Shown piece after piece: positions 4,557 through 24,000 of a stretch of DNA of 24,000 nt. Numbering within the stretch: position 1 is the first letter of the stretch; every line of letters begins with the position of its first letter. The stretch covers positions 25,066 to 49,065 of the forward strand of contig JAWXCO010000015.1 in the NCBI GenBank assembly GCA_034408705.1. Reading direction: 5' to 3'. The notes under the pieces were generated by a model that searched no databases, was not told the origin of the DNA, and was given only the letters and a program-made list of their open reading frames with translations. The position numbers and the translations under genes are program-made. The stretch comes from Bacteroidota bacterium. GTDB lineage: Bacteria; Bacteroidota; Bacteroidia; Chitinophagales; Chitinophagaceae.

Positions 4557-4643
4557 GTATTGTATTTAGCCAGCAATGATGGCTCAAATTAATGAATTGT
4601 AATATAATAAACCCCTTTGAAAGTCATCCTTTTTTAATGTAAT

Positions 4644-4669
4644 AAAGGACCCCTGAAAAGGAGCCCTTT
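4644..4669 (-). terminator. possible stem-loop terminator after the T9SS cargo gene
   Basis: Minus-strand RNA aaagggctcc-uuuuca-ggggucCuuu forms a 10-bp stem, 2 pairs of which are G-U on the minus strand only. There is no clear U-tract. Confidence 0.35.
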
Positions 4670-4722
4670 ATTTAACCTACCTTGAAGGTTAAGTGAAAAA
4701 ATCAATATCGTAAAGCCTATTT

Positions 4723-8657: not shown

Positions 8658-9668
8658 ATGTTTCATCTGGCAATTCTTACTATATTCACCAAAACTAGCT
8701 GTTTGTTTTACCGTTGCCTTAAACTTATTGCCCGGATTGCCATCCGAATTTTTTGCCGGAAGATAATCATCAACCAACCCGGTTTATTAAAAATCAAGGG
8801 GCCGGTGTTACTGGCTTGTAATCATCCTAATTCTTTTCTCGACTCCGTTATTCTTGATACACTATTTGAACAACCAGTATGGTCACTGGCAAGAGGTGAT
8901 GTATTTAAAAATCCTGTTGTTATCCGGATGCTGACTGCTTTAAAAATATTACCCGTCTATCGTACCAGCGAAGGAGTAGAAAACCTCTCAGAAAATTATA
9001 AAACATTTGAAGCCTGCACTACTATTTTCCGGAATAATGGAATAATAACAATTTTCAGTGAAGGCAAATGTATCAACGAGTGGCATCTCCGTCCCTTAAA
9101 AAAAGGGACAGCAAGACTGGCCATCAAAGCATGGGAAGAAAACATTCCATTACAGGTAATATCAGTCGGTATTAATTACAGTTCGTTCAGGAGGTTTGGC
9201 AAAAATATTTTTCTAAATTTTGGTTCGCCTATCATTAAAGAAAATATTAATTTCACTGAAGCAGATGGCATGCGGCATCAGTCTTTTAATAACCAATTAC
9301 AAAAACAACTGGAACAATTGGTTTTTGAAATACCAAAACAGGATAAACAAAAACAAAGAGAATTACTTGAAATAAAGCCTTCTGTACAAAAAAAAATAGT
9401 ATTGGCTATCCCAGCTGCTGTTGGCTATCTTATTCATTTACCACTTTACTTACCGGTTAAAAAATTTACCTGGAAAAAAAATAATCATAATGATCATTAT
9501 GATTCTGTACTGATCGGCATTCTTCTTTTCGGCTATATACTTTACTTAATTGTACTAGTAGCTATTGTATGGATTATAACCGGCGGCTGGTGGGCAATTT
9601 TCCTACTGATACTTTTACCTTTTACTGCCTGGGCATACACACAACTAAAGCCGCAATTGGATAAATAG
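8658..9668 (+). CDS. membrane-anchored glycerolipid/lysophospholipid acyltransferase family protein
   Basis: Block I ACNHPNSFLDS (again H-x5-D), ARGDVFKN, block III FSEGKC. The C-terminal third has 2-3 TM helices (LAIPAAVGYLIHLPLYL, VLIGILLFGYILYLIVLVAIVWIITGGWWAIFLLILLPF). Confidence 0.65.
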   Translation: MFHLAILTIFTKTSCLFYRCLKLIARIAIRIFCRKIIINQPGLLKIKGPVLLACNHPNSFLDSVILDTLFEQPVWSLARGDVFKNPVVIRMLTALKILPVYRTSEGVENLSENYKTFEACTTIFRNNGIITIFSEGKCINEWHLRPLKKGTARLAIKAWEENIPLQVISVGINYSSFRRFGKNIFLNFGSPIIKENINFTEADGMRHQSFNNQLQKQLEQLVFEIPKQDKQKQRELLEIKPSVQKKIVLAIPAAVGYLIHLPLYLPVKKFTWKKNNHNDHYDSVLIGILLFGYILYLIVLVAIVWIITGGWWAIFLLILLPFTAWAYTQLKPQLDK

Positions 9669-9671
9669 CAG

Positions 9672-10424
9672 TTATTCCTTTTTTACCCCGAAAACAATTT
9701 CTCCACTGGCTTCATTTTTATACGTCTTAAAAAGCCGATCCCAGCAACTAAATACAGAGCCATAATTAGTATCAGTTTCCTGCTGTTTATCTGAATGATG
9801 AATACGGTGCATCAGCGGAGAAGAAAATAGTTTTCTGTATATGTGATCAATCCTACGGCTGATAGCAATATTAGAATGATGGATGAGCACAATTATGAAA
9901 AATATCGCTTCGTAAATAAGAATGGGCAAAAAAGAAAATCCCATCAACAAAAAGAAAATGGCTTTACATACAGTAGAAAACAACAGCTCTACCGTATGAA
10001 AACGTAAAGCGGTGGTAGTATTCATTTTATTATCCTTGTGGTGAAACTGGTGAAAACGCCAGAATATTTTTTGGGTGTGGTTGATGCGGTGCCACCAGTA
10101 CATGGCTAAATCCATAAAAAATATTGTAATCGCCAACTTTAACCAAAATGGGAAAATGAATTGCTGCAACAATCCCATTTTATTTTTTTCAATTGCGGAT
10201 AACAACTCAATTATAAGTACAGATGGGAAAAACAGGATGGCGAGGTTTATGACCCCAATTAATAAATTACGTCCTTCATTTTTTCTGTCATTATATTTAC
10301 GAGCTGCCGGAAATAAATGTTCTGCAGTATATTGCAATAATAAAACAGCAAAAAGAATAATTGATTGCCACCGCTTTTCAGGTATGTGTTCCAGGTAACC
10401 CGAAAAAACAAATGCCAGGGTCAT
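9672..10424 (-). CDS. fatty acid hydroxylase / sterol desaturase superfamily membrane di-iron enzyme
   Basis: Histidine boxes WWHRINH (HxxxH), HQFHHKD (HxxHH) and HRIHHSD (HxxHH), plus about 4 TM segments. Its ATG overlaps the upstream stop as ATGA (10421-10424). Confidence 0.8.
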   Translation of the reverse strand: MTLAFVFSGYLEHIPEKRWQSIILFAVLLLQYTAEHLFPAARKYNDRKNEGRNLLIGVINLAILFFPSVLIIELLSAIEKNKMGLLQQFIFPFWLKLAITIFFMDLAMYWWHRINHTQKIFWRFHQFHHKDNKMNTTTALRFHTVELLFSTVCKAIFFLLMGFSFLPILIYEAIFFIIVLIHHSNIAISRRIDHIYRKLFSSPLMHRIHHSDKQQETDTNYGSVFSCWDRLFKTYKNEASGEIVFGVKKE

Positions 10425-11017
10425 GCTAAACTCTTTTTAGTGACCAGCCAATCTTTTTCCGTATCCACATCGGTAAGTACCGGCAACACATAGAAAGATA
10501 ATTGCTGCTTTCTGAAATCAGCGATGGTGTCATTATATACTGTTGGAGTGCTCCATTCTTTATTCTCAAAAATGAAAGAGTACATTTTTTTCATTCCGAG
10601 AAGGTAATAGCCTCCGTCTTTTGCAGGTCCGATCACTACATCATTTTCATTTAAGGATTCAAATGCTTTATTTACAATTGTTGCGTTTAATTCGAAACAA
10701 TCGCTGCCGATAATAACTGCTTTTTCATACCCTTCTTCAAGTAGCGATGTAAATGCATGGTTCATTTTTTTTCCGAGATCTTTATTGATTTGAACAAATT
10801 TGAAGAATCTTTCAGCTGTCCACAGATCATTACTTTCAATTTCCTCATGATAAAAAACAAATTTATCAGCATCAATTGCATTTGCAATTTGAAAAGTGTG
10901 TTGCAGTAATTCTTTATATATATACAAAGCTTTTTCATCCCCAATAGAGGCTGCCAGTCTTGTTTTTACTTTCCGCAGTTCTGGTTTTCGTACAAATATG
11001 ATTAAGCCCTTTTTCAT
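10421..11017 (-). CDS. DUF2064 / TIGR04282-like (arsenosugar-associated) GT-A / nucleotidyltransferase-fold protein
   Basis: The N-terminus GLIIFVRKPELRKVKTRLA is the DUF2064 signature. 198 aa. ATGA start/stop overlaps at both ends (11014-11017 and 10421-10424). Confidence 0.75.
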   Translation of the reverse strand: MKKGLIIFVRKPELRKVKTRLAASIGDEKALYIYKELLQHTFQIANAIDADKFVFYHEEIESNDLWTAERFFKFVQINKDLGKKMNHAFTSLLEEGYEKAVIIGSDCFELNATIVNKAFESLNENDVVIGPAKDGGYYLLGMKKMYSFIFENKEWSTPTVYNDTIADFRKQQLSFYVLPVLTDVDTEKDWLVTKKSLA

Positions 11018-12084
11018 TTACTTCTCAGCTTTTGGCCTTCTGTTTTTTTAGGGTGTACGGTTCTGTTACGGTTTAAGTTTAATTCCATTTGCTTTTGTGG
11101 TGATGAGTTTTCAGGTGCTTTCCCAAACCGGAGCTTAAATGCCCGCAAGCCTGACTTAATCTCATCCCAAAAATTTGAAGGTGGTTTATACCCGTAAGCC
11201 CGGTATTTGCCGGGTTGTAATTTTCCTTTTGCTGCAACAAAGGTTTTAAAATGTTGCACCCAATTCTCAAATTTATTGATATAATCTTTCTCAAAAATCA
11301 CATCTTCACTTTGGTTTTCGCTGTACTTCTTGCCTACCCCGCTATCTGCATATTCCCATAATTTTTCCGGCACTTCTATTCCACCATACCTGCATTGCCA
11401 TACAAGCGGCGCATATGCCTGTCGCATGTCATCAAATGGTTCTGTATCCCCATCAAAATATTTTTTATGCGTTAAAATTTTCGGAATATTATTTTCATCC
11501 ATTTCATCTCCTCCCTGATCACCATAACAAAAGAATCCAGCAGTTCTCCCTTCGAGGTGATTTAACATTAAGCTCTTCCATTGTTCCGATTGCTCTAATG
11601 CCATTGCTTTTTCCGGATCTTTATGTGCAATTAATTTTTCATCAGGATTACCACCGTTCATGCAAACCATTCTGTCAAACATTAGTTTTAAATTACTGGT
11701 GGGCCCGTACCAGTTCACGGGTCCTATAATGGCCCATGCATCAGCCATATCCAACCGGGCATACATATCTGCATCCCACATAAAATCCGGTTCTGCATGG
11801 CTGTTTTTTTTATAGCAATTACACGGCCACACACATAATGCCATTGAAGTAGATACACAGGCATTGCAACTTTGGATGTGTGCCCTTCCATAAGCGTTGC
11901 TTAAATCCTCGTAATCTATTTCCCATTCCTGCGGCAGCATATCAGCCATTTTTAGCATCAGCATCCTTGCTTTGCTGTCAACACCGGGACAATTGTACTG
12001 TTTACGGCCTGAACCGGCGATTATTAATACCCGGAACGGTCTTTGATCTACAGGTAATGCCGCATTTTTATCATTAGGTTTCAT
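11014..12084 (-). CDS. flavodoxin-like fold (NADPH-dependent FMN reductase family) protein with Cys-rich insert
   Basis: N-terminal RVLIIAGSGRKQYNCPG is the flavodoxin-like nucleotide loop. The Cys cluster CNACVSTSMALCVWPCNC resembles the Fe-S motif of iron-sulfur flavoproteins. The basic C-terminal tail is of unknown function. Confidence 0.5.
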   Translation of the reverse strand: MKPNDKNAALPVDQRPFRVLIIAGSGRKQYNCPGVDSKARMLMLKMADMLPQEWEIDYEDLSNAYGRAHIQSCNACVSTSMALCVWPCNCYKKNSHAEPDFMWDADMYARLDMADAWAIIGPVNWYGPTSNLKLMFDRMVCMNGGNPDEKLIAHKDPEKAMALEQSEQWKSLMLNHLEGRTAGFFCYGDQGGDEMDENNIPKILTHKKYFDGDTEPFDDMRQAYAPLVWQCRYGGIEVPEKLWEYADSGVGKKYSENQSEDVIFEKDYINKFENWVQHFKTFVAAKGKLQPGKYRAYGYKPPSNFWDEIKSGLRAFKLRFGKAPENSSPQKQMELNLNRNRTVHPKKTEGQKLRSK

Positions 12085-12187: not shown

Positions 12188-12517
12188 ATGCAAAATATTT
12201 GGGAAAGTATTAAAAAATACTATGTGACTTTAGGGGAAAGCTATCATGTCGACCCACTTATATTTGTGGGAATACATGTTGTTGCAACTCCTTTATTTAT
12301 TGCGGCTGTTGCATGGCTAATAAGTAATTACCGTAAAAATAAATCAATTTTTCTCCCTGCTATAGTTGCCGTCCTCATTTTTAATGCTGCCAACATCTAT
12401 CTCGTCATTATGGGGAGAAATATACCCTGGTGGATTTATACTATACTAGGGGTAACAACAATACTCAGCAGTTATTTTTCTTACAAAAAAGTAAGGAAGA
12501 AAATAAATGCAAAATAA
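12188..12517 (+). CDS. hypothetical small membrane protein (109 aa, about 3 TM)
   Basis: ATG ORF with hydrophobic segments (LIFVGIHVVATPLFIAAVAWLI, IFLPAIVAVLIFNAANIYLVIM, WWIYTILGVTTILSSYF). It is the only plus-strand ORF inside the cluster. No family recognised. Confidence 0.4.
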   Translation: MQNIWESIKKYYVTLGESYHVDPLIFVGIHVVATPLFIAAVAWLISNYRKNKSIFLPAIVAVLIFNAANIYLVIMGRNIPWWIYTILGVTTILSSYFSYKKVRKKINAK

Positions 12518-12633: not shown

Positions 12634-13602
12634 TTAGCAGCATCCCCCTCCATCATAAAACCAGGTGGAACCAGAAATAAAAATATCTTCACTACCTAAT
12701 GCTGCTAATGCACGGGCAGTTTTATCACAAACCGCTAATGGCTGATTGGGTAATAACAAATGGCCTTTATTATCATCAAAACAATCATTACCGCCATAAT
12801 AAATAGCTGTCTTACCTGTAAACACACAAGGGCCGTCAGCAGGCATCGGGTCTTTTATAGCACATACTTCCACACTCTCTATATAAATAAGTTTGTCGGT
12901 ATCATAGTTCTTTGGGTCAAGAATACGATAAGGACGTTTAGCTCTTATCTCCACGGTACCAAAACCAACATCGGTTATCATTTTAATATAATCCCACAAG
13001 GGTAATGAGCCACTGAGACATAATGCCCTTAACCTTTCATCTTCCCGTAATGATTCCGGCATAATAGCTTCGCAAGTCGGGTCACTCATTACTAATCGGC
13101 CACGGGGTTTCAACACCCGGTACATTTCCCCTAATGCCTGTTTCAAGTCTTCCTGTTTAAAAATATTAAACAAACAATTTTGTGCAGCTACATCTATGCT
13201 TGCATCTTCTACCGGCAAATTCAATGCATCACCTTTTTTTACTCCCACAAACTCACTCCTGAACCAGGGATTTAATTTTTCTGCCTCCACAAAATTCTCC
13301 TTACAAGCTGTTATCATTTCATCAACCACATCTACACCAATAACTCCATTTTGTTGCCGGCTGAAATAAGCAAATTGTAACAACTCCATTCCTCCCCCAA
13401 TACCTACATATAAAATTTTCGGATTATTTACAAGGTCCCTTGGATGAACGGTACTGCCGCATCCGTAATTCATTTGCTGCATCTTTACTGGTATGTCTAA
13501 TCCGGGCAATTGCCAAACGGGCGTTGTAGTACAGCAAAGACCTACCTGTGGATTTTCTGCCGCTTCTCTATAAATATCCCTGGTTGTTTCTAAATATGAC
13601 AT
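12634..13602 (-). CDS. arsM: ArsM-like SAM-dependent arsenite methyltransferase (arsenosugar-cluster type)
   Basis: SAM motif I ILYVGIGGGMEL. Cysteines sit in ArsM-like contexts (GLCC near the N-terminus, AQNCLFNIF, RALCLSGSL). The C-terminus is GGGCC. It lies directly downstream of arsS. Confidence 0.75.
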   Translation of the reverse strand: MSYLETTRDIYREAAENPQVGLCCTTTPVWQLPGLDIPVKMQQMNYGCGSTVHPRDLVNNPKILYVGIGGGMELLQFAYFSRQQNGVIGVDVVDEMITACKENFVEAEKLNPWFRSEFVGVKKGDALNLPVEDASIDVAAQNCLFNIFKQEDLKQALGEMYRVLKPRGRLVMSDPTCEAIMPESLREDERLRALCLSGSLPLWDYIKMITDVGFGTVEIRAKRPYRILDPKNYDTDKLIYIESVEVCAIKDPMPADGPCVFTGKTAIYYGGNDCFDDNKGHLLLPNQPLAVCDKTARALAALGSEDIFISGSTWFYDGGGCC

Positions 13603-13625: not shown

Positions 13626-14687
13626 TTAAGCTACTGCTCCTCCACAGCTACTTCCTGCACCAGCGGTGCAGCCATAGCAATGTTGGTTTATTACAATTTC
13701 GCGGTTGGCTAAAACAGATAAACTGAATTGTGAAATATGCTGAGATGAACAATTTACTTTCATATCCAGCATCTGGTTAAAATCACAATCATAAATAAAT
13801 CCATCCCAACCAATGGAGAGTGTATTCCGACACATTACATTAGCGGCAGCTACGGGATTAAATGCTAAAACCAGTTTCTCCATATACTTTTCATAGTTGC
13901 CGCTTTCTAATAAATATTGCAGAAAGCGACTGATAGGTAAATTGGTAATAGCAAAAAGGTTGTTGAATTCGATATTGAAATCCCTTTTTAATGCCGCTTT
14001 AAAATCTTTTTGTAAAGCATCCTGAGCAGGCGGCAAAAAAGCACCTGCCGGATTATACACCAGGTTTAATAGTAGACCAGTCCCTATTATTCCATAGCCA
14101 ACTCCGTTCAGCAATTGAAGTGCTTTGATAGAATCTTCAAATACACCATCTCCTCTTTGCCTGTCTGTCCGCTCTTTACTATAAAAAGGAAGTGACGACA
14201 CCACTTCAATATTATGCAGCTTAAAAAATTCTGGAAGGTCATTAAATCTTTTATTGGCCAGGATGATAGTAAGATTGCAACGGACAATTATATGCTTGTC
14301 CAGTTTTTTAATTTCCTCCACAAACCATCTGAAATCGGGATTGAGTTCCGGAGCACCACCGGTAAGATCAACTGTGGTAAAAGATTTATTAGCTGACAGC
14401 ACATTCAAACATTGCTGCATCGTTTCTCTGGTCATTATTTCTTTACGGTCCGGTCCTGCATCCACATGGCAATGCTTGCAAACCTGGTTGCACATTTTGC
14501 CTACATTGATTTGAAAAATTTCTAATTGTATTGGCTTTAATGGAAATAAACCAACCGCCTCCAGTTTTTGCTGAAAGGGCACTAACCTGAAAGCATCATC
14601 ATGATTACGGCCATGCTCCAGGATTTCAATCTGTTCATTTGAATCGGATAACAAGTGATGCTGAGATTTCAGAGACTTCATTTTCAA
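13626..14687 (-). CDS. arsS: radical SAM / Cys-rich domain protein ArsS (TIGR04167-like), Cys form
   Basis: CX3CX2C radical-SAM motif (CNQVCKHC). The characteristic C-terminal motif is CYGCTAGAGSSCGG. The Cys that is Sec in some family members is encoded here by TGT. Confidence 0.85.
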   Translation of the reverse strand: MKMKSLKSQHHLLSDSNEQIEILEHGRNHDDAFRLVPFQQKLEAVGLFPLKPIQLEIFQINVGKMCNQVCKHCHVDAGPDRKEIMTRETMQQCLNVLSANKSFTTVDLTGGAPELNPDFRWFVEEIKKLDKHIIVRCNLTIILANKRFNDLPEFFKLHNIEVVSSLPFYSKERTDRQRGDGVFEDSIKALQLLNGVGYGIIGTGLLLNLVYNPAGAFLPPAQDALQKDFKAALKRDFNIEFNNLFAITNLPISRFLQYLLESGNYEKYMEKLVLAFNPVAAANVMCRNTLSIGWDGFIYDCDFNQMLDMKVNCSSQHISQFSLSVLANREIVINQHCYGCTAGAGSSCGGAVA

Positions 14688-14716: not shown

Positions 14717-15052
14717 TTACATGGCCACTTCTTTTACCTTATTCATCATCTGCACACCATGCACTAATGCTGCGCCACCCTTGATGGCAGCAGCTACATG
14801 AATAGCTTCCATCATTTGTCCTTCACTCCATCCTTTTTCAAATGCGTCGCTGCTGTAAGCATCGATACAATAAGGGCATTGTACAGCATGAGCTACGGCT
14901 AAAGCAATCAATGATTTTTCTTTAGCCGTTAAGTTACCTTCTCCAAACACTTCCCCATACCAGGCAAAAAATTTATCGGCCATTGGCTTTTGAAACTCGC
15001 CGACATTTCCAAATTTTCCAAGGTCCTCTGCGTTGTAATAATGATTAGCCAT
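14717..15052 (-). CDS. AhpD/carboxymuconolactone-decarboxylase-like 'peroxidase-like' protein (arsenosugar-associated type)
   Basis: 111 aa with the AhpD-type CxxC motif (VQCPYCIDAY). Only 3 nt separate its ATG from the upstream stop. Confidence 0.75.
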   Translation of the reverse strand: MANHYYNAEDLGKFGNVGEFQKPMADKFFAWYGEVFGEGNLTAKEKSLIALAVAHAVQCPYCIDAYSSDAFEKGWSEGQMMEAIHVAAAIKGGAALVHGVQMMNKVKEVAM

Positions 15053-15055
15053 ATG

Positions 15056-16327
15056 TTATGATTTATAGTTTTGAAGATATAGTGTCCAGTCGTACTCTTT
15101 AAATTGTATTGCCGGCTTTTTATCGGCCGGGACAATTGAAAGTTCCCGAAGTAAAGATAGCATCCCTTTCTTACCTCCAAAATCACGGCGAAACCAGCTC
15201 ATTAATGTGGGCAGCTCTGCCCTATTAGCCACTTCATCATATTTCACCTCACTTGTTAAATAAACTTTTGTTGCGAGTGCCAATTGTTCATTTATACTTT
15301 CCGCCTTATAAAAAGCGATCGGTGGGCAACTTTTGGCTCCGCAGTTCAGGGCAAAATGTAACCGGTAATCCAATTGATTAACCCGCAATTGTTTCTCTGT
15401 TTTACCGGGAAATGGTTTTTTCAAATGCCCCAAACTCCATTTTATACTTGAGCGGCGCAGAATACCATGTTCTATATCATCAAGACTAAATTTTTCTCCC
15501 GCAATCTCTATTTGTTTACTTCCGAAGAATTGACTTCTTTTCTTATACTGCTCAGGATTTTTCTTTAATGATACCTGTGTATATGCATTATAAAGATTTA
15601 TCCAGAAGGCCTTTTTCTCCTCATCTGTTTTTATAGTTGATCGCAGATCAGTCATGGTAATTTGCCGGAGTTGCTGGACAAAACCTGATACATCTTCGTC
15701 TGTTTTGGCAGCATACATAAACTGCTGCGATAGTTGGACTAACCTGTTGGCAGACGGTTCCATGATTTCCTTCTCTTTATTTGTTGAAGATAAAGGTTGG
15801 TTAACAACCTTATTAGTCATACCGATGACCACTGAACCGGCTTCTTCTTCCTTCAACCACTTATCAATATTTTCAGCAGTCATTTCCTCCTGTGAAGGTA
15901 TTGCAATAACTTTGCCACTCTTATTAACAATCACGGTATAAGGATAGGAAGGTGGCTGAAAATGTTTAGTGAATAACTCTTTTTCATCCACTACAAGTGG
16001 TAGTGTAAAGTCTTGTTGTCTGCTGATAAAACTAGTCAGCTTTGCTTCTGGTTCATTTGATACAAGCAGTATTCTCACACGATCGTTGTATTTTTCCTGG
16101 AGGGCTGATAATTTTGGCAAAGCCTTTACACAAGGCACGCACCAGGTACCAAAGAAATCAACTACCAGTAACCGGTCTTTTAACTGCGAAAACGTTGAGG
16201 AAGCAGAAGAACTATTAAGTATTTTATGAACAGGGAAGTCGCCAGTCATATCGTTTAGCCCATATCCAGACTGGCCACGTAATGTGACATTCGCCATGAT
16301 GCATATGAAAAGAAAGCTCCATTTCAT
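15056..16327 (-). CDS. exported TlpA-like thioredoxin fused to a DUF547 domain
   Basis: Start moved to the ATG at 16327, giving the signal-like N-terminus MKWSFLFICIMANVTLRGQ. The thioredoxin motif is FFGTWCVPC. The C-terminal half has DUF547 hallmarks (FWINLYNAY, LDDIEHGILR, HFALNCGAKSCPPI). Confidence 0.7.
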   Translation of the reverse strand: MKWSFLFICIMANVTLRGQSGYGLNDMTGDFPVHKILNSSSASSTFSQLKDRLLVVDFFGTWCVPCVKALPKLSALQEKYNDRVRILLVSNEPEAKLTSFISRQQDFTLPLVVDEKELFTKHFQPPSYPYTVIVNKSGKVIAIPSQEEMTAENIDKWLKEEEAGSVVIGMTNKVVNQPLSSTNKEKEIMEPSANRLVQLSQQFMYAAKTDEDVSGFVQQLRQITMTDLRSTIKTDEEKKAFWINLYNAYTQVSLKKNPEQYKKRSQFFGSKQIEIAGEKFSLDDIEHGILRRSSIKWSLGHLKKPFPGKTEKQLRVNQLDYRLHFALNCGAKSCPPIAFYKAESINEQLALATKVYLTSEVKYDEVANRAELPTLMSWFRRDFGGKKGMLSLLRELSIVPADKKPAIQFKEYDWTLYLQNYKS

Positions 16328-16375
16328 GAAAGACAGGTGTAGTTGGTTAGACGAATGACCTACTATAAACGTAAA

Positions 16376-16387
16376 TTTACCGGTAAA
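16376..16387. promoter_or_regulatory. 12-bp perfect palindrome TTTACCGGTAAA in the divergent control region (candidate operator)
   Basis: Perfect dyad, overlapping a second 10-bp palindrome gtaaatttac (16371-16380). It is centred about 32 nt upstream of the PNP start and lies within the 86-bp gap between the divergent arsenical operon and the PNP gene. Confidence 0.35.
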
Positions 16388-16400
16388 AGATTCGAAATAG

Positions 16401-16408
16401 TAAATTTG
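16401..16408 (+). promoter_or_regulatory. Bacteroidota -7 promoter box (TAAATTTG) for the PNP gene
   Basis: Exact TAnnTTTG match with its G 6 nt before the ATG at 16414, the same geometry as at 3243-3250. Confidence 0.45.
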
Positions 16409-16413
16409 TTTAA

Positions 16414-17238
16414 ATGATATTAACACCTGAAAGTATAGTCGAAACCGCTTCTTTTCTGCGGACATCCGGCTTTAATCAACCTGTGGTGGGTATTGTTATG
16501 GGCACCGGTCTCGGTGCAATGGCAGATAAAATTGAGAACCCGATTTCGATCCCTTATCCGGCCATTCCGAACTTCCCTGAAGCCACGGTAGAGTTTCATA
16601 AAGGCAACCTGTTGTATGGCTCCGTTGGTGACGTGAAGGTCATTGCGATGCAGGGTCGTTTTCATTATTATGAGGGCTATAGTATGCAGCAAATTACTTT
16701 TCCGATACGCGTAATGAAAGCATTAGGTATAAACTATCTTTTTCTAAGCAATGCAGCTGGTGGGCTGAACCCAAGCTACAAAAAAGGCGACCTCGTTTTA
16801 TTGGAAGACCATATCAATTTCCTGCCGGATAATCCGCTTCGGGGCGTAAGTGACCCGGCGCTGGGTCAGCGTTTTGTTGATATGAGCCGTCCCTATGATA
16901 TGCGCTTAATAAAACTGTTAGAAGATACCGCGTTATTACAAAACAAGATGGTAAAAAAAGGGATCTATGCAGCCGTGATGGGCCCTAATCTGGAGACCCG
17001 GGCCGAATACCGCTGGCTCCGTTCCACCGGCGCGGACCTGGTAGGCATGAGTACAGTCCCAGAAGTAATAGTGGCCAACCAGGCTGGGATAAAATGTGCA
17101 GCCATCAGTGTTGTCACGGATGAATGTGACCCCGATCATTTACAACCCGTAAATATTGCTGAGATCATTGAAGTGGCGGGCAGGTCGGATAAAATACTAA
17201 GTGATCTGTTGGTAGCCTGTATAAAAGAATTGAAATAA
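16414..17238 (+). CDS. purine nucleoside phosphorylase, trimeric PNP/MTAP class (PunA-like) with Asp at the base-specificity position
   Basis: Motifs GIVMGTGLG, QGRFHYYEG, LSNAAGGLN, GPNLETRAE and GADLVGMSTVPEVIVA. The ISVVTDE motif puts Asp236 (GAT, 17119-17121) where human PNP has Asn243. Confidence 0.85.
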   Translation: MILTPESIVETASFLRTSGFNQPVVGIVMGTGLGAMADKIENPISIPYPAIPNFPEATVEFHKGNLLYGSVGDVKVIAMQGRFHYYEGYSMQQITFPIRVMKALGINYLFLSNAAGGLNPSYKKGDLVLLEDHINFLPDNPLRGVSDPALGQRFVDMSRPYDMRLIKLLEDTALLQNKMVKKGIYAAVMGPNLETRAEYRWLRSTGADLVGMSTVPEVIVANQAGIKCAAISVVTDECDPDHLQPVNIAEIIEVAGRSDKILSDLLVACIKELK

Positions 17239-17283: not shown

Positions 17284-17976
17284 TTAGCGGTAGTTCAGCA
17301 TTTTTTTATACATATGCACCATTTCCACCTGGGAAGCCCCATTTTTATACATACTGACGATCTTCCTGTTGGTCATTTGTACTTTCCACCAGCTGTTTGT
17401 GTCATATTTACGGGCTGAAACAAGGGTCGGCTTATTAAAGATTTTGTACCGCTCTTTTTCTCTTGCCCTTGAAACAAATTCATACTCTTCCATGATCAGC
17501 ATATCTGTTTTGAAACCACCTGCGCTCATATACAAATCCCGGGTAATAAAAAGTGTCTGGTCTCCACCCATACAGATAAACCAGTCGAACCGGGTAAACC
17601 ACGCATTGATCTTTAAATACCATTTACGGGAATTAAATTGTGTACGATACCGGCCGATAGCAAACCCATCTTCTATTGCCTTGCTAATATCGGCAACAAA
17701 AGAGGCAGGAGGGAATGTATCTGCATGGACAAAATATAAAACATCTCCTTTGGCCAATGATGCCGCATAGTGCATTTGTGCTGCCCTGCCTTTTTGAGGT
17801 GAGAGAATCCCTGCTGCTCCTGCATTGTTAGCTATCAGCAACGTATCATCCGTACTGCCAGCATCCACCACAATGATTTCTGCGACCGCCTCCGTTTTAT
17901 ATTGCAGAAGATAACGGATAAGTTCTCCGATATGCTCAGCTTCATTATAAACCGGTATGATAATACTTATCTGCAT
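17284..17976 (-). CDS. family-2 glycosyltransferase, TIGR04283-like (arsenosugar-associated type)
   Basis: IIIPVYNE, VVDAGSTDDT, GRAAQM, LYFVHADTFPP, GGDQTLFITR and MEEYEF. The ~230 aa size is typical of the small GT2 that co-occurs with DUF2064 proteins. Confidence 0.7.
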   Translation of the reverse strand: MQISIIIPVYNEAEHIGELIRYLLQYKTEAVAEIIVVDAGSTDDTLLIANNAGAAGILSPQKGRAAQMHYAASLAKGDVLYFVHADTFPPASFVADISKAIEDGFAIGRYRTQFNSRKWYLKINAWFTRFDWFICMGGDQTLFITRDLYMSAGGFKTDMLIMEEYEFVSRAREKERYKIFNKPTLVSARKYDTNSWWKVQMTNRKIVSMYKNGASQVEMVHMYKKMLNYR

Positions 17977-18005
17977 AGCGATATGATGATAAAGCAGGGA
18001 AACAA

Positions 18006-19238
18006 TTATAAAGAAATTTGAGCAATCGTTTTACCAGCAATAAACCCACTGGTCCAGGCATACTGGAAATTAAATCCGCCGGTCACTCCGTCTACATCCA
18101 AGACTTCACCGGCAAAAAAAAGGTTCGGTTGTTTTTTACTCATCATCGTTGTATGATCGATTTCAGTAAGCCGGATACCGCCAGCCGTTACAAATTCTTC
18201 TTTGAATGTTGTTTTCCCTTTTACCTCAAACCCGCAACTACATAAATTCTTAACCAGTTTGTTGGCATCTTTTGAAGGCAGATCGGTCCATCTTCTTTCT
18301 GCATCTACACCTGAATAATGCAATAAAAAATCCCATAATCTTCCCGGCAAACCGAAATGGTTTTTTGTTCCTAGTTTTTGTGCAGCAATTTCAAAACGAA
18401 GTGACTGAAATTTCTCAGCCAGTTGTTGTTCATTGTAATTTGGCAACCAGTTAACAACGATACTAAAATTATATTGTTTAATAGCCAGTTCCCGGGCTCC
18501 CCATGCACTTAGCTTTAATATTGCCGGGCCGCTCATTCCCCAATGGGTAATCAGTAGCGGGCCCTCCTGTTCAAGCTTTGTTCCGGTGATCTTGACCCTG
18601 GTATTTTCCACACTTACACCCATCAGTTCCCTGATCGGATGACCTGGCATATTAAACGTGAATAAAGATGGGACCGGGTCTTCAATGGAATGTCCCAGCT
18701 CCCGCAGCCATTCAAACATAGAAGACTTTGGATATCCCCCGCTTGCAATACATATATAGTCAGCTGTAAGCATCCTGGAGTTGGATAGTTGAATGGCAAA
18801 TTGTCCTTTCTTACTGTTTATGTTTTTTACTTCTGTCTGCATCATCATTTCAATACCATACCGGCTCATTTCGTTCAGCAGGCAATCAATGATTGTCTGA
18901 GAGGAGTCAGTAATGGGAAACATTCTTCCGTCTTTTTCCTCTTTCAGTTCTACTCCTCTTTGGCGAAACCAGTCGATCGTATCTGTGGTAAAAAACTGGT
19001 GAAACGTTTTCTTTACAAAATTTCCTCCCCTTGGATATCTTTTACTCATATCCGCAATATCAAAACAAGCGTGCGTAACATTGCAGCGGCCACCGCCACT
19101 TACTTTTACTTTCGATAAAAGCTTACCGGTCTTTTCTATCAGGATGACCTGCAGGTTAGGGTTTAATCTTGCTGCATTCACTGCACAGAAAAAACCGGCT
19201 GCTCCGCCCCCTACCACTACCAGTTTTTTTACTACCAT
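18006..19238 (-). CDS. HI0933/YhiN (BaiN-like) family NAD(P)/FAD-dependent oxidoreductase
   Basis: Start moved to the ATG at 19238 (MVVKKLVVVGGGAAGFF, the dinucleotide-binding GxGxxG). SGGGRCNVTH is the family signature. The longer ORF to 19421 would overlap map. Confidence 0.8.
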   Translation of the reverse strand: MVVKKLVVVGGGAAGFFCAVNAARLNPNLQVILIEKTGKLLSKVKVSGGGRCNVTHACFDIADMSKRYPRGGNFVKKTFHQFFTTDTIDWFRQRGVELKEEKDGRMFPITDSSQTIIDCLLNEMSRYGIEMMMQTEVKNINSKKGQFAIQLSNSRMLTADYICIASGGYPKSSMFEWLRELGHSIEDPVPSLFTFNMPGHPIRELMGVSVENTRVKITGTKLEQEGPLLITHWGMSGPAILKLSAWGARELAIKQYNFSIVVNWLPNYNEQQLAEKFQSLRFEIAAQKLGTKNHFGLPGRLWDFLLHYSGVDAERRWTDLPSKDANKLVKNLCSCGFEVKGKTTFKEEFVTAGGIRLTEIDHTTMMSKKQPNLFFAGEVLDVDGVTGGFNFQYAWTSGFIAGKTIAQISL

Positions 19239-19265
19239 AAAATAAAACCCCTCAGCTGAGGGGTT
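19239..19265 (-). terminator. 20-bp perfect palindrome plus U-tract spanning the map stop codon
   Basis: aacccctcagctgaggggtt (19246-19265) is a perfect dyad containing the map TGA. On the minus strand it is followed by TTATTTT, which runs directly into the ATG at 19238. Confidence 0.55.
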
Positions 19266-20070
19266 GAAGTATTTGTTGGGTAAATAAGTTAGGATTTGTT
19301 TCTTCTGCCTTTTCAATCGTACTGTAATTGGACAATATATCTGCCTTCCCTTTCCTGACACAGACATCATGTTCAAAATGCACCGATGGTTTTCCGTCCT
19401 TTGTCCGTACGGTCCAGCCATCTTCTTCAGTAAACACTTCTTTCTTTCCCAGGTTGATCATCGGTTCTATTGCCAGCACCAATCCTTCTTTCAATTTCGG
19501 ACCGCTTCCCCGTTTGCCATAGTTAGGTACCTGGGGATCTTCATGCAGGCTCCGGCCCAGCCCATGCCCCACCAATTCCCTTACCACACCATAGCCATTT
19601 TTTTTCTCTGTATGCTCCTGTATGGCAAATGCAATATCTCCGATCCTGTTCCCTATTACTGCTTTTTCAATCCCTTTATACAACGATTCTTTTGTCACTT
19701 GTATCAGCCGCAATGTTTCAACTCCCGGATCACCAATAGCAAAAGTGTAGGCATGATCACCGTGCCAGCCGTTTAATATGACACCGATATCGACAGAAAT
19801 AATATTCCCTTCGGCCAGTTCATTCGGCCCGGGGAAACCATGCACCACCACATCATTGACTGAAATACAGGAATTATAAGGGTAACCTTTATAATTTAAA
19901 AAGGAAGGAATGGCTTCGTGATCCCTGATAAACTGGCCAATCACTTTATCTATAGAAAGGGTGGTGATACCAGGTTTCAGCATTCCGGCCACTTCGGCCA
20001 ATGTCTTACTGACCAGCAATGCACTCTTGCGCATCATTTCGACCTGTTCATCTGTTTTATAAAGCATCAT
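19252..20070 (-). CDS. map: type I methionine aminopeptidase
   Basis: Metal-ligand blocks SVDIGV...GWHGD, VGHGLG, LAIEPM and HFEHD. The ORF track begins at a TTG (20079); the first ATG is at 20070 (MMLYKTDEQVEMMR), with 20067 as an alternative. Confidence 0.9.
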   Translation of the reverse strand: MMLYKTDEQVEMMRKSALLVSKTLAEVAGMLKPGITTLSIDKVIGQFIRDHEAIPSFLNYKGYPYNSCISVNDVVVHGFPGPNELAEGNIISVDIGVILNGWHGDHAYTFAIGDPGVETLRLIQVTKESLYKGIEKAVIGNRIGDIAFAIQEHTEKKNGYGVVRELVGHGLGRSLHEDPQVPNYGKRGSGPKLKEGLVLAIEPMINLGKKEVFTEEDGWTVRTKDGKPSVHFEHDVCVRKGKADILSNYSTIEKAEETNPNLFTQQILQPLS

Positions 20071-20087
20071 ACGTTGCAAATATCTTT

Positions 20088-20122
20088 AAAAAAACAAAAC
20101 CCGGCAAGTATTGCTTACCGGG
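20088..20122 (-). terminator. rho-independent terminator after secY
   Basis: Minus-strand cccgguaagc-aauac-uugccggg (9 bp with 1 mismatch) followed by UUUUGUUUUUUU. It lies 22 nt after the secY stop and just upstream of map. Confidence 0.7.
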
Positions 20123-20144
20123 TCCTGCTGTATAAAATTTATTG

Positions 20145-21485
20145 TTACATCTGGACTGCAGAAGTGGTTTGACGGCCCTGTATACGTCCGCTTTTCATTA
20201 AGCCATCGTACTGACGCATTAATAACTGTGTTTCGATTTGTTGTAAAGTATCGAGGATAACACCTACCATGATCAGCAATGAAGTACCACCAAAGAACGT
20301 AGAGAAAGCCTGTGTTACACCGAACCGCTCTGCAATACCCGGAAGAATACCCACAAAAGCAAGTAAAAATGCACCGGGCAGTGTGATACGGTCCATGATA
20401 GCACCGATATAATCCGCCGTCGGTTGTCCTGGTTTTACACCGGGGATAAAACCGTTATTCTGTTTCAGGTTATCCGCTATTTGCTTGGGATTAAAGATCA
20501 GCGCCGTGTACAAAAAGGTAAATCCAATTACCACCACGGAGTAAATAAGCATATACCACAAACTCTTATGGTCGGTCAGTTCTCTTAAGAAACTACCACT
20601 GGTTGGATTAAAATTTGCAAAAATGGTAGGGATAAAGATGATCGCCTGGGCAAAAATGATAGGCATAACACCGGCACTGTTCACCTTCAATGGTAGAAAC
20701 TGTCTGGCGCCACCAAACTGGCGGTTCCCCACTATTTGCTTGGCATAGTTCACCGGTACTTTACGTACACCCTGTATCAGCAAAATACATCCCATAATGA
20801 TCGCAATCAGGATGGCTATTTCAATAATGAAAATCAAAATATCACCGCTTCTGCCTGATTTGCTACTTAACTCCTGGAGGAAAGACTGTGGCAAACGGGC
20901 CAGGATACCGATCATGATGATCAACGAAGTTCCATTACCCAATCCTTTATCAGTGATCTTCTCTCCCATCCACATGACAAACATGGTTCCTGCTGTTAAT
21001 ACCACTACAGTGATTAACCAGAAACTGGAAGGAGAAAGTCCTGCCATCATCGCTCCGGACTGTGCGGTCAATCCTTCTAAATATTTTACATAAGCAGATG
21101 CCTGTAATATGGTAACTGCTACCGTGAGGTAACGGGTGTATTGATTGATTTTCTTACGCCCACTATCACCTTCTTTTTGCATTTTCTGAAAACGGGGCAC
21201 CAGCACCGTCATCAGCTGCATAAAAATGGAAGCAGAGATATAAGGCATGATACCCAATGCAAAAATGGAGGCGTTATTAAATGCACCTCCGGAGAAAGCA
21301 TCGATCAAACCGAGGATACCATTATTATTTCTATCACCGGTTTCGAGCTTAGTAGGATCAATACCGGGCAAAACAATATGTGAACCAATCCGGTAGATTG
21401 CGATCATCATCAGGGTAAAAAGAATTTTACCCCGCAACTCTTCAATGCTCCAGATATTTTTGAGTGTCTGTATTAATTTCTTCAC
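20145..21485 (-). CDS. secY: preprotein translocase subunit SecY
   Basis: Full-length 10-TM SecY (LGIMPYISASI, GEKITDKGLGNGTSLIIM, LLIMVGVILDT). It appears to start at a GTG (21485). Confidence 0.95.
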   Translation of the reverse strand: MKKLIQTLKNIWSIEELRGKILFTLMMIAIYRIGSHIVLPGIDPTKLETGDRNNNGILGLIDAFSGGAFNNASIFALGIMPYISASIFMQLMTVLVPRFQKMQKEGDSGRKKINQYTRYLTVAVTILQASAYVKYLEGLTAQSGAMMAGLSPSSFWLITVVVLTAGTMFVMWMGEKITDKGLGNGTSLIIMIGILARLPQSFLQELSSKSGRSGDILIFIIEIAILIAIIMGCILLIQGVRKVPVNYAKQIVGNRQFGGARQFLPLKVNSAGVMPIIFAQAIIFIPTIFANFNPTSGSFLRELTDHKSLWYMLIYSVVVIGFTFLYTALIFNPKQIADNLKQNNGFIPGVKPGQPTADYIGAIMDRITLPGAFLLAFVGILPGIAERFGVTQAFSTFFGGTSLLIMVGVILDTLQQIETQLLMRQYDGLMKSGRIQGRQTTSAVQM

Positions 21486-21553
21486 GGGAATTAAAAAAAT
21501 TTAAAAGCACTTAAAACATACTACCCCGGCTTGCTGGTGTAGTACATATAAAA

Positions 21554-21572
21554 GACGCATTGTCAGTGCGTC
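21554..21572 (-). terminator. possible attenuator hairpin between rplO and secY
   Basis: Minus-strand gacgca-cugacaa-ugcguc followed by UUUUAUAU, within a 104-nt rplO-secY spacer. Confidence 0.3.
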
Positions 21573-21589
21573 GTTACAATTTAGCGAAA

Positions 21590-22039
21590 TTACTTTACAA
21601 TCTCTATCGTTCCACCTGCCGCTTCAATAGCGGATTTGGCTTTCGCACTTGCAGCATTCACTTTGAAAGTGAATTTACCATTCAGCTCCCCGTTTCCCAG
21701 TATTTTTATTCTGTCGTTTTGGGCAATCAGGCCGTTAATATACAAACTCTCCGGTGAAAATTCAGTGATACTATATTTCTCAGACAATTGTTCGATTTGT
21801 CCCAGATTCAATACTTTATATTCTATCCGGTTAATGTTCGTAAAACCACGTTTAGGGACACGCCGCTGAATAGGCATCTGGCCACCTTCATGCGCCATTT
21901 TACTTTTATAACCTGAGCGGCTTTGTCCGCCTTTGGTACCTTTTGTAGATGTTCCACCATGACCAGAACCATCACCACGGCCAATTCTTTTGTCTTTGTG
22001 TACAGAACCTTTTGCAGGTCTTAATTCGTGTAGTTTCAT
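21590..22039 (-). CDS. rplO: 50S ribosomal protein L15
   Basis: MKLHELRPAKGS...RIGRG.GSG.G.TS.KG.KG. This is the canonical L15 N-terminus, in the operon position after L30. Confidence 0.95.
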   Translation of the reverse strand: MKLHELRPAKGSVHKDKRIGRGDGSGHGGTSTKGTKGGQSRSGYKSKMAHEGGQMPIQRRVPKRGFTNINRIEYKVLNLGQIEQLSEKYSITEFSPESLYINGLIAQNDRIKILGNGELNGKFTFKVNAASAKAKSAIEAAGGTIEIVK

Positions 22040-22067
22040 TGTTGTTTGCTTTTATTTTTGACTTAAC

Positions 22068-22102
22068 GCCCCGAAAGCTTCCGATAGTTACCGGAACGGG
22101 GC
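22068..22102 (-). repeat. GATAGT-loop compound hairpin, copy 2 (rpmD-rplO spacer)
   Basis: Outer stem gccccg/cggggc, 5-nt asymmetric bulge, inner stem ttccg/cggaa, loop ATAGTTAC. It lies about 30 nt upstream of the rplO ATG. Confidence 0.5.
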
Positions 22103-22162
22103 TCGCTTTTTTAATTTGAAAATTTAACGAAAAGATTATAATCCCGGATCGTTAAATCACAT

Positions 22163-22345
22163 TTATGCCAGTTCTTCCACTTTTAAAAGGTGGGTTACTT
22201 TACGTATCATCCCCAGTATTTGCGGAGTCGCTTCTACTTCTTTGGAAGAATTCGTTTTATTAAGACCTAAAGCCTGTACAGTCAGTTTCTGACGTTCAGG
22301 TCTGTCGATAGGGCTTTTTACCAATGTTATCTTTAACTTTTTCAT
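22163..22345 (-). CDS. rpmD: 50S ribosomal protein L30
   Basis: 60 aa, KITLVKS.I......K.T..ALGL pattern, positioned between S5 and L15. Confidence 0.9.
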
Positions 22346-22368
22346 AATTCAATTCTTTTGAAATCGTA

Positions 22369-22887
22369 TTAACCGTTGAATACTTTCTTTAACCCCATCG
22401 TGCGGGTCTTCGCTACATTGATCGGCTCTCTCAGTAACGCTAACGCTTTAAAAGTTGCTTTTACCACGTTGTGAGGATTAGCAGAACCCAATGATTTAGC
22501 CAAAACGTCCGTTACGCCGGCTGCTTCCAGCACAGCACGCATAGAACCTCCGGCGATCACACCAGTACCATGGGCAGCTGGTTTAATCAGCACCTTGGCA
22601 GCACCTTCTTTAGCCCACTGGTCATGCGGGATCGTACCCTTCATTACCGGAACTTTGATAAGGTTCTTTTTGGCATCCTCAATTCCTTTGGTAATAGCTT
22701 CCTGTACTTCCTTGGCTTTGCCCAAACCATGGCCCACTACTCCGTTCTCGTTTCCAACAACGACGAGTGCAGAAAAACTGAAAGCACGGCCACCTTTGGT
22801 AGTTTTTACTACCCGGTTGATGGCTACTACTTTATCTTTCAGTTCCAGGTCACCTGCTTTTACCCTGTTTACGTTGAACTTTGACAT
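22369..22887 (-). CDS. rpsE: 30S ribosomal protein S5
   Basis: [33 protein letters not shown] and the GTGVIAGG motif. Confidence 0.95.
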
Positions 22888-22921
22888 GTATACTTGTAAT
22901 TAAAGTTTGAATGTTGTTTGC

Positions 22922-23284
22922 TTAAAATTTCAGGCCGCCTTCTCTTGCTCCGTCAGCTACTGATTTCACCCGGCCATGATATAGATAACCACCACGGTCA
23001 AAAGTTACATTTTCAATACCCAGCTCAACGGCTTTCTTAGCGATTGCTTCCCCTACCATCTTGCTCTTTTCTACTTTATTCACCTTTTGGGCTGCAATAG
23101 ACTTGTCTTTGGAAGAAGCTGCTGCCAGTGTCTGACCATTTGCATCATCGATCAACTGTGCATAAATATCAGCGTTACTTCTGAACACAGATAAGCGGGG
23201 CTTCTGCGCTGAGCCTTCACCAATTCTACGGCGAATGCGATAACGGATGTTTCTTCTTCTTTGTGATTTAACTTTTGGGTTCAT
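22922..23284 (-). CDS. rplR: 50S ribosomal protein L18
   Basis: Basic N-terminus, then [17 protein letters not shown] and the C-terminal [25 protein letters not shown]. Confidence 0.9.
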
Positions 23285-23303
23285 CTCTTTCTATTTTATG
23301 GTT

Positions 23304-23336
23304 CCCTGTCCTGATAGTTATCGAGGACTGCCAGGG
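23304..23336 (-). repeat. GATAGT-loop compound hairpin, copy 3 (rplF-rplR spacer)
   Basis: Outer stem ccctg/caggg. Inner stem tcct(g)at/at(c)gagga region closing the loop AGTT. Core CTGATAGTTATCG. Confidence 0.5.
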
Positions 23337-23353
23337 TTCAATTTTCAAATTAT

Positions 23354-23908
23354 TTATTTACCAGCCGCTTTACCAGCTTTCTTACGTACCACTTCACCAA
23401 CATAACGAACACCTTTTCCTTTGTATGGTTCAGGTTTGCGGAGGCCGCGCAATTTAGCGGCTACCTGTCCGATCAGTTGCTTATCGATTCCTTCCAGGGT
23501 AATAATCGGGTTCTGACCTTTTTCCTGTGCGGTAGCAACCTTCAATTCTTTTGGCACTTCAAAAACGATATTATGAGAGAAACCTAAAGAAAGATCGAGC
23601 ACATTTCCCTGGCTAGCTGCTTTAAAACCTACCCCGATCAATTCCAGTTTTCTTTGATAGCCTTCCGTTACACCTTTTACCATATTAGATACCAGCGAAC
23701 GATATAAACCATGCATGGCGCGGTGACGGATCTGATCAGTTGGACGGGCAAAAGTGATCTGGCCATCTTTTACTTCCAGCGTAATATCGCGGTCAACTGT
23801 TTCTTTCAATTCACCTTTGGGACCTTTTACAGTCACTACATTGTCCTTACCCACAGAAATCGTTACACCATTGGGAGCGATCACGGGTTGTTTTCCTATA
23901 CGAGACAT
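23354..23908 (-). CDS. rplF: 50S ribosomal protein L6
   Basis: MSRIGK.P...P.GV........V.VKGPKGEL, a two-domain L6 upstream of L18. Confidence 0.95.
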   Translation of the reverse strand: MSRIGKQPVIAPNGVTISVGKDNVVTVKGPKGELKETVDRDITLEVKDGQITFARPTDQIRHRAMHGLYRSLVSNMVKGVTEGYQRKLELIGVGFKAASQGNVLDLSLGFSHNIVFEVPKELKVATAQEKGQNPIITLEGIDKQLIGQVAAKLRGLRKPEPYKGKGVRYVGEVVRKKAGKAAGK

Positions 23909-23943
23909 AAAATAAGTTTATAGTTTGTTGTTTATAATTTGTT

Positions 23944-23957
23944 GCTGACCGGTCAGC
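23944..23957. other. 14-bp perfect palindrome GCTGACCGGTCAGC upstream of rplF
   Basis: Perfect dyad in the spacer preceding rplF. All three minus-strand frames contain a stop codon between 23958 and 24000, so the upstream gene (expected rpsH) ends at or beyond about 23969-23997. Confidence 0.4.
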
Positions 23958-24000
23958 TTAGTATAGTTTCAGCTTAATGTATCGACAACGTTCAGGCTAA

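Follow-up and report, generated by a model that had tools for sequence, protein, structure and literature searches.

The window analysed here, a 24,000-nucleotide stretch of contig JAWXCO010000015.1 from a Chitinophagaceae member of the Bacteroidota, carries at 16414–17238(+) a gene whose product is, on sequence comparison, a phosphorylase (predicted activity) of the purine nucleoside phosphorylase (PNP) fold, from a clade belonging to the arsenosugar cluster of Bacteroidota. We propose, with a probability of roughly 0.55, that this PNP is a candidate phosphorylase of 5′-deoxy-5′-dimethylarsinoyl-adenosine (hereafter DDMAA), feeding the TIGR04282 and glycosyltransferase family 2 (GT2) enzymes encoded in the same cluster. 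Arsenosugars, the principal arsenic species of seaweeds, are also a major source of arsenic in the diet, and their biosynthesis has been established no further than DDMAA. The removal of adenine and the attachment of the arsenoribose to glycerol or other acceptors have been open since the pathway was proposed in the 1980s. According to the literature, DDMAA is the product of ArsS, which builds the 5′-deoxyadenosyl radical into it; a preprint of May 2026 states that the adenine "can then be removed" and says no more. The literature searched assigns no enzyme to this step, an earlier mention being possible in a 2019 pathway paper that the search did not cover. The original prediction had put the window PNP forward as a candidate adenine-removing enzyme, largely on account of an Asp in its base site; the candidacy itself is supported by recurrent gene linkage, coupling to TIGR04282, membership of a separate clade and a 5′ pocket resembling that of MTAP, but the argument from Asp is weak.

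Linkage was assessed in an ArsS-centred sample obtained by a profile scan of one genome per GTDB species, from which 80 loci with 10-kb flanks were kept, almost all of them from Bacteroidota. A PNP gene lies 16–3414 bp from ArsS in 28 of the 80 loci, which come from different species in several Bacteroidota families (25 genes of full length, one truncated at the end of its contig and two fragments), the homologues being 51–66% identical. By chance, a single-copy gene located randomly in a genome of 4 Mb would be expected in ~0.4 of 80 loci, and the observed linkage is ~70-fold higher. All 25 linked PNPs that were aligned carry the Asp that the original prediction had singled out. Clustering of the neighbouring open reading frames (ORFs) of the 80 loci without prior labels recovered, besides ArsS itself (80 loci), AhpD-like proteins (61), TIGR04282 (47), ArsM (30), PNP (24), the GT2 family TIGR04283 (21), rhodanese (14), DUF547 (13) and fatty-acid hydroxylase (9). 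PNP is the fifth commonest family near ArsS, above one that NCBI names "arsenosugar biosynthesis glycosyltransferase".

The association with TIGR04282 is particularly close, this family being present in 27 of 28 PNP-bearing versus 12 of 52 PNP-less ArsS loci (p = 6 × 10−11). In 19/24 loci the PNP and TIGR04282 genes lie directly side by side on one strand, separated by −11 to +98 bp and often overlapping by 1–4 bp. The linkage extends over at least four gene orders (ArsS-PNP-TIGR04282-GT2, TIGR04282-PNP-ArsM, PNP-AhpD-ArsS and the divergent layout of the window). Among close homologues (70–75% identity) the PNP gene sits between thioredoxin-DUF547/AhpD/ArsS and GT2 in 7/7 loci, so that the possibility of finding it beside unrelated genes in relatives is not borne out, while the outer flanks of these loci are the SecY end of a ribosomal-protein operon in four and beta-lactamase/phospholipase-D genes in three. 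Since the outer contexts differ and the inner genes are the same, the cluster has relocated as a whole, the PNP moving with it. In the window (6528–8504 and 17284–24000) and in loci L090, L177 and L178 the cluster is flanked by ribosomal protein S1 on one side and by the SecY end on the other; in L087, L089 and L176 the same cluster lies among beta-lactamase and phospholipase-D genes.

Phylogenetic analysis of 185 PNPs by neighbour joining with 200 bootstraps placed all linked PNPs, which derive from Chitinophagaceae, Saprospiraceae, Chryseolinea and Flavobacteriaceae, in one clade together with one unlabelled representative. This clade excludes every PNP known to be unlinked (those of Spirosoma, planctomycetes and KSB1, the structures 4m1e, 4lna and 8swt, and human PNP) in 196/200 bootstraps, with strict monophyly of the linked PNPs in 126/200, and it departs from class phylogeny in that the Chryseolinea PNP groups with those of Chitinophagaceae and the Spirosoma PNP falls outside. 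An independent PNP-centred sample of 80 metagenome-contig loci, seeded with sister representatives of the linked clade, gave a consistent picture: of the 32 PNPs whose residue 244 (human PNP numbering, used throughout for comparisons of position) is Glu or Asp, 13 lie near arsenosugar genes, versus 0 of 48 of other types (Fisher p = 1 × 10−6). In the extended tree, the smallest clade containing all 51 linked PNPs has 61 members; linkage holds for about 14 of the 17 informative loci within it and for none beyond it, and of the 14 unlinked Glu244-type PNPs that are informative, 11 lie beyond it. Glu244 was rejected as a sufficient mark of linkage, 19/32 of the Glu/Asp244-type metagenome PNPs being unlinked.

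The window gene is an intact ORF encoding 274 amino acids. Its product matches PF01048 with 175 bits (cut-off 25.1) and the purine-nucleoside phosphorylase family NF006054 with 340 bits (cut-off 218), passes the "inosine and guanosine-specific" family TIGR01700 barely (299 bits, cut-off 293.35) and fails the MTAP family TIGR01694 (101.5 bits, cut-off 274.85). Its earlier description as divergent is doubtful, given that it exceeds even the TIGR01700 cut-off. It does so despite having neither Asn243 nor His257, for which reason the automatic label could mislead. The AlphaFold model (predicted local distance difference test, pLDDT, 92.5; predicted template modelling score, pTM, 0.91) superposes on solved PNPs with template modelling (TM) scores of 0.94–0.96 overall, 0.95–0.96 for 4m1e and 0.94–0.95 for human and bovine PNP. 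No second PF01048 gene is present in the 24-kb window, and the earlier label of paralog is not supported. The gene and its active-site codons are as follows.

16414–17238 (+): PNP-family gene, member of the arsenosugar-linked clade by PF01048, NF006054, the AlphaFold model and the tree
16990–16995 (+): codons Leu193-Glu194, equivalent to human Phe200-Glu201, with Glu201 kept
17119–17124 (+): codons Asp236-Glu237 in the motif TDEC, equivalent to human Asn243-Lys244 and to MTAP Asp220/Asp222
17155–17169 (+): codons Ile248-Ala-Glu-Ile251-Ile252, with Ile248 at the His257 position and the Ile residues corresponding to MTAP Val233/Val236/Leu237

The window PNP was aligned (MAFFT and HMMER) with human PNP, human MTAP, three solved bacterial PNPs and 25 homologues, the two human sequences having been confirmed as exact against the PDB. 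The list of active-site residues of trimeric PNPs, in which Asn243 contacts O6 of the base, was taken from PMC9916683. Residue 236 of the window PNP is Asp (codon GAT, 17119–17121, motif SVVTD) and is matched in the alignment by human Asn243 and MTAP Asp220; no gap interrupts the stretch that leads to it from GMSTVPE, with 24 residues from Met212 to Asp236 as from human Met219 to Asn243. The manual assignment of Asp236 as the Asn243 equivalent is therefore upheld by the multiple alignment. The phosphate ligands Ser33/Arg84/His86/Ser220 are conserved as Thr31, Arg82, His84 and Ser213, and the ribose ligands Tyr88/Met219/Phe159 as Tyr86, Met212 and Phe154. The positions that differ from human PNP are these.

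Human Phe200, window Leu193, MTAP Phe177: Leu in 25/25 linked PNPs
Human Asn243, window Asp236, MTAP Asp220: Asp in 25/25 linked PNPs
Human Lys244, window Glu237, MTAP Asp222: Glu in 23/25 linked PNPs
Human Val245, window Cys238, MTAP Cys223: Cys in 20/25 linked PNPs
Human His257, window Ile248, MTAP Val233: Ile in 25/25 linked PNPs

Across close homologues Leu200, Glu201 and Asp243 occur in 120/120 and Ile257 in 119, the remaining one having a gap there, and position 244 is Leu in the unlinked Spirosoma, planctomycete and Bacteroides fragilis enzymes. His257 is the 5′-OH ligand of human PNP (mutants His257Gly, His257Phe and His257Asp are present in the PDB), and Val233, Val236 and Leu237 form the 5′-methylthio pocket of MTAP. 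As read from these alignments, the linked clade unites a PNP scaffold with a predicted MTAP-like base site and 5′ site. The window PNP has the Asp220-type base contact and the non-polar 5′ pocket, a resemblance in possible mode of action and not membership of the MTAP family.

The distribution of these residues was surveyed in a set of 150 representatives taken from the nearest 50%-identity clusters of the family, typed at positions 200/201/243/257, with the following main classes.

Tyr or Phe/Glu/Asn/His (canonical): 54 of 150 representatives
Leu/Glu/Asp/hydrophobic: about 22 of 150 representatives
Leu/Glu/Asn/hydrophobic: about 23 of 150 representatives
Phe or Tyr/Glu/Asp/His: 8 of 150 representatives

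Two features that might have been taken as diagnostic were rejected. Asp236 is found also in unlinked PNPs and in the B. fragilis PNP solved with Immucillin-H, and Leu200 with a hydrophobic residue at 257 is shared by the 4lna- and 4m1e-related enzymes of Spirosoma and planctomycetes, whose neighbours are unrelated genes. As an argument for adenine specificity, which the original prediction had made of it, the Asp is not distinctive, being present in the B. fragilis PNP and in Spirosoma and planctomycete PNPs near unrelated genes, while the window enzyme retains Glu201. The about 23 representatives combining Asn243 with Leu200 and a hydrophobic residue at 257 (P0253, P0254, P0258, P0264, P0267, P0269 and others) form a class that, from its residues, could possibly serve 5′-substituted 6-oxopurine nucleosides.

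A further indication of what the Leu200/Asp243/hydrophobic-257 type may do comes from methionine salvage. MtnA is S-methyl-5-thioribose-1-phosphate isomerase and consumes the product of 5′-methylthioadenosine (MTA) phosphorolysis. Directly downstream of a PNP of this type, an MtnA gene (TIGR00512, 388 bits, cut-off 279) is found in 5 of the 80 metagenome loci (L103, L154, L139, L111 and L098), and this adjacency is therefore independent evidence of this PNP class acting on 5′-substituted adenosines. In L103 the PNP-fold gene at 3998–4819 is followed by MtnA at 4856–5917, and an aminotransferase precedes the pair. The gene order suggests that the MtnA-adjacent PNPs may serve methionine salvage as MTA phosphorylases of the PNP family that have gone unrecognised.

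Under the proposed reading, the window PNP would bind DDMAA as MTAP binds MTA, with Asp236 and possibly Glu237 holding the adenine and with Ile248, Ile251, Ile252 and Leu193 forming a non-polar pocket for the 5′-dimethylarsinoyl group in place of the His257 contact to a 5′-OH. Phosphate bound in the intact Thr31/Arg82/His84/Ser213 site would displace adenine and yield 5-deoxy-5-dimethylarsinoyl-α-D-ribose 1-phosphate. The CofC-like TIGR04282 protein could then turn this arsenoribose 1-phosphate into a nucleoside diphosphate (NDP)-sugar, from which the inverting GT2 enzyme TIGR04283 would pass the sugar to an acceptor, giving a β-riboside as in natural arsenosugars. PNPs convert β-nucleosides into α-1-phosphates, the anomeric configuration is retained in nucleotidyl transfer and inverted by GT2 enzymes, and because of this sequence a β-riboside would be the expected product; the β-ribofuranosyl linkage of natural arsenosugars is shown by a compound name in the literature. 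Taken together, the dedicated PNP clade, TIGR04282 and TIGR04283 might constitute a Leloir-type route via a nucleotide-activated arsenic sugar, running from nucleoside to sugar 1-phosphate, NDP-sugar and β-glycoside; we advance this fuller route tentatively, with somewhat less than even confidence.

Several observations weigh against assigning the window PNP to DDMAA. The enzyme keeps Glu201 (Glu194), where MTAP has Ser, and the Leu200/Asp243/hydrophobic-257 combination is likewise carried by PNPs whose neighbours are ordinary, among them those of Spirosoma, of planctomycetes and of YggS-DivIVA-PNP-IleRS-type contexts. The window gene lies on the strand opposite the operon, 5.4 kb from TIGR04282. 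In 52/80 ArsS loci, 12 of them with TIGR04282, there is no PNP within 10 kb, so that the enzyme must be dispensable or encoded elsewhere in those genomes. Many of the linked loci are phylogenetically related, which means that fewer independent events took place than the counts suggest; the trees are distance-based (neighbour joining) only, and three informative members of the linked clade (L101, L104 and L126) are unlinked. Finally, two clusters from metagenome-assembled genomes (MAGs) hold only PNP fragments. These lie at 9094–9210 in L007 and 7496–7822 in L076 (residues 27–65 and 158–266), in a Ferruginibacter and a Saprospiraceae cluster, at the place occupied by the complete gene in relatives, and they represent either gene decay or an assembly defect. 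As for other adenine-removing candidates in the PNP-less clusters, no nucleosidase or hydrolase family recurs across the 80 ArsS loci, the recurrent extra families being rhodanese, DUF547 and fatty-acid hydroxylase, together with local neighbours.

The same evidence bears on three other explanations. The PNP could be a general 5′-deoxyadenosine/MTA phosphorylase that clears by-products of S-adenosylmethionine (SAM), with DDMAA not its true substrate, and could be kept in the cluster since 5′-deoxyadenosine inhibits radical SAM enzymes such as ArsS. The adjacency of same-class PNPs to MtnA, which implies MTA phosphorylase activity in relatives, the non-polar 5′ pocket and the radical SAM nature of ArsS all favour such a role. 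We nevertheless regard it, including its inhibition-relief form, as rather unlikely: ArsS builds the 5′-deoxyadenosyl radical into its product, so that 5′-deoxyadenosine is a side product only, neither MtnA nor any other salvage gene appears among the neighbour families of the 80 ArsS loci, and clearance leaves unexplained both the overlap-level coupling to TIGR04282 and a separate clade that moves with the cluster. Decidedly unlikely, in our view, is a housekeeping PNP for adenosine, inosine and guanosine salvage, possibly the organism's only one, that hitch-hiked with the cluster. Passing generic PNP models, TIGR01700 included, fully standard catalytic residues, the Asp type being the normal PNP of Bacteroides, Spirosoma and planctomycetes, and the lack of a second visible PNP in the 24 kb are what such a gene would display; it would hardly account for a ~70-fold linkage excess maintained in no fewer than four gene orders and at two genomic locations, for a clade that cuts across class phylogeny with Chryseolinea inside alongside Chitinophagaceae and Spirosoma outside, or for the loss of the 5′-OH ligand His257.

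A role in arsenolysis, in which arsenate replaces phosphate to give ribose 1-arsenate that thiols reduce to arsenite for ArsM, seems very improbable. The thioredoxin-like protein is the divergent neighbour of the PNP, and PNP-dependent arsenate reduction in vitro by mammalian PNP is reported in literature cited by the review PMC12608789, which describes the in vivo role as unproven. Arsenolysis explains neither the altered 5′ pocket nor the coupling to TIGR04282, and a rhodanese-like protein, which is the more conventional candidate for an arsenate reductase, is encoded in 14 clusters and co-occurs with PNP in several of them. We retain DDMAA phosphorolysis as the most likely role of the window PNP.

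The PNP gene stands head to head with the arsenosugar operon and has the GT2 gene on its other side; the neighbouring genes were identified by PF, TIGR and NF profile matches in agreement with the earlier sequence-only annotation, as listed here.

16328–16413 (no strand): divergent intergenic region between the PNP and thioredoxin-DUF547 genes, 86 bp if the latter starts at 16327
15056–16327 (−): thioredoxin-like plus DUF547 protein, first operon gene, by domain match; DUF547 occurs in 13 ArsS loci
14717–15052 (−): AhpD-like arsenosugar-associated peroxidase-like protein, TIGR04169 (174.6 bits, cut-off 120)
13626–14687 (−): ArsS, radical SAM enzyme, TIGR04167 (440.8 bits, cut-off 300)
12634–13602 (−): arsenosugar-type arsenite methyltransferase ArsM, NF038099 (561 bits, cut-off 400)
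11014–12084 (−): Cys-rich FMN-reductase-like protein, weak match to PF03358
10421–11017 (−): TIGR04282/DUF2064 protein, CofC-like, proposed sugar 1-phosphate nucleotidyltransferase (205.6 bits)
9672–10424 (−): fatty-acid-hydroxylase-family membrane protein, overlapping TIGR04282 by 4 bp; family in 9 ArsS loci
17284–17976 (−): GT2 glycosyltransferase TIGR04283 (214 bits, cut-off 182), convergent with the PNP gene across a 45-bp gap

The head-to-head arrangement, repeated in seven relatives, stands as first described, but the 86-bp gap depends on the start at 16327. This start gives a thioredoxin-DUF547 protein of 423 amino acids, fitting homologues of 422–426 amino acids, while other gene calls on identical contigs start at 16297 or 16249 and widen the gap to 116 or 164 bp. 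The sole PDB relative of TIGR04282 is 3cgx, described as a "putative nucleotide-diphospho-sugar transferase".

Other genes in and around the cluster deserve brief mention. The 356-amino-acid Cys-rich protein at 11014–12084(−) has no NCBIfam match and has homologues of 68–80% identity in six other clusters (L013, L016, L017, L018, L076 and L151); it could be an electron donor for ArsS. On the opposite strand within the cluster, 12188–12517(+) encodes a predicted membrane protein of 109 amino acids with no family match and with homologues at 40–44% identity in L011, L015 and L076. The fatty-acid-hydroxylase gene overlapping TIGR04282 and the PlsC-type acyltransferases flanking the cluster are found at 8658–10424 and 3789–4556, and acyltransferases flank the arsenosugar cluster in L090 and L177 too; the hydroxylase overlap and the acyltransferase flanks hint at an arsenic-containing lipid as the end product. 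In related clusters, a PHO4-type phosphate/arsenate transporter or MIP aquaglyceroporin lies between ArsS and ArsM, and a glyoxalase-domain protein or rhodanese-thioredoxin fusion adjoins the PNP (L175, 3004–4089; L177, 2914–4020 and 7826–8536; L087, 6566–7228 and 10839–11903). The transporter genes raise the idea that the cluster may import arsenic rather than only detoxify it.

For the arsenosugar pathway, these results supply one concrete candidate for adenine removal, an ordered three-enzyme hypothesis and a set of residues to mutate, and the question becomes testable with easily expressed proteins. If the hypothesis is correct, arsenosugars would be made via a nucleotide-activated arsenic sugar, an intermediate never described, and a Leloir-type route would explain the β configuration of natural arsenosugars. 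Automatic annotation would call the linked enzymes "inosine and guanosine-specific", and the wider PNP-fold group with an MTAP-like pocket, some members of which stand next to MtnA, may include unrecognised MTA phosphorylases.

Compared with known systems, the window enzyme shares family and fold with the trimeric PNPs (human and bacterial PunA-type; PF01048/NF006054, TM 0.94–0.95 to human and bovine PNP), including the phosphate site, the ribose site and Glu201, but differs from them by the changes Asn243 to Asp, Lys244 to Glu, Phe200 to Leu and His257 to Ile, and its gene belongs to a biosynthetic cluster, not to nucleoside catabolism. Its three best PDB matches all have Asp at the Asn243 position. 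The closest solved structures, 4m1e from Planctomyces limnophilus and 4lna from Spirosoma linguale (296 and 288 bits, TM 0.94–0.96), resemble the window PNP in Leu200, in Asp243 and in a hydrophobic residue at position 257, but have Leu244 instead of Glu and fall outside the linked clade, and close homologues of 4lna (Spirosoma) and of 4m1e (the planctomycetes Polystyrenella and Schlesneria) are found among unrelated genes. The PNP of B. fragilis (8swt; 262 bits, TM 0.94), from the same phylum, likewise has Asp at the Asn243 position; unlike the window PNP it keeps Phe200 and His257, and it was solved with the hypoxanthine analogue Immucillin-H, which shows that the linked type is not marked out by Asp alone. 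The literature searched yielded nothing useful on the specificity of the B. fragilis enzyme. An engineered human PNP, Glu201Gln:Asn243Asp, cleaves adenosine analogues (PMC2799393) and shares Asp243 with the window PNP, which keeps Glu201 and has further changes in the 5′ pocket. MTAP (human, 1cb0) resembles the window enzyme in Asp220, in a second acidic residue (Asp222, window Glu237) and in the non-polar Val233/Val236/Leu237, as well as in acting on a 5′-deoxy-5′-substituted adenosine, as is proposed for the window enzyme, and differs in having Ser178, Ile67 and His137 where the window type keeps Glu201, Tyr88 and Phe159.

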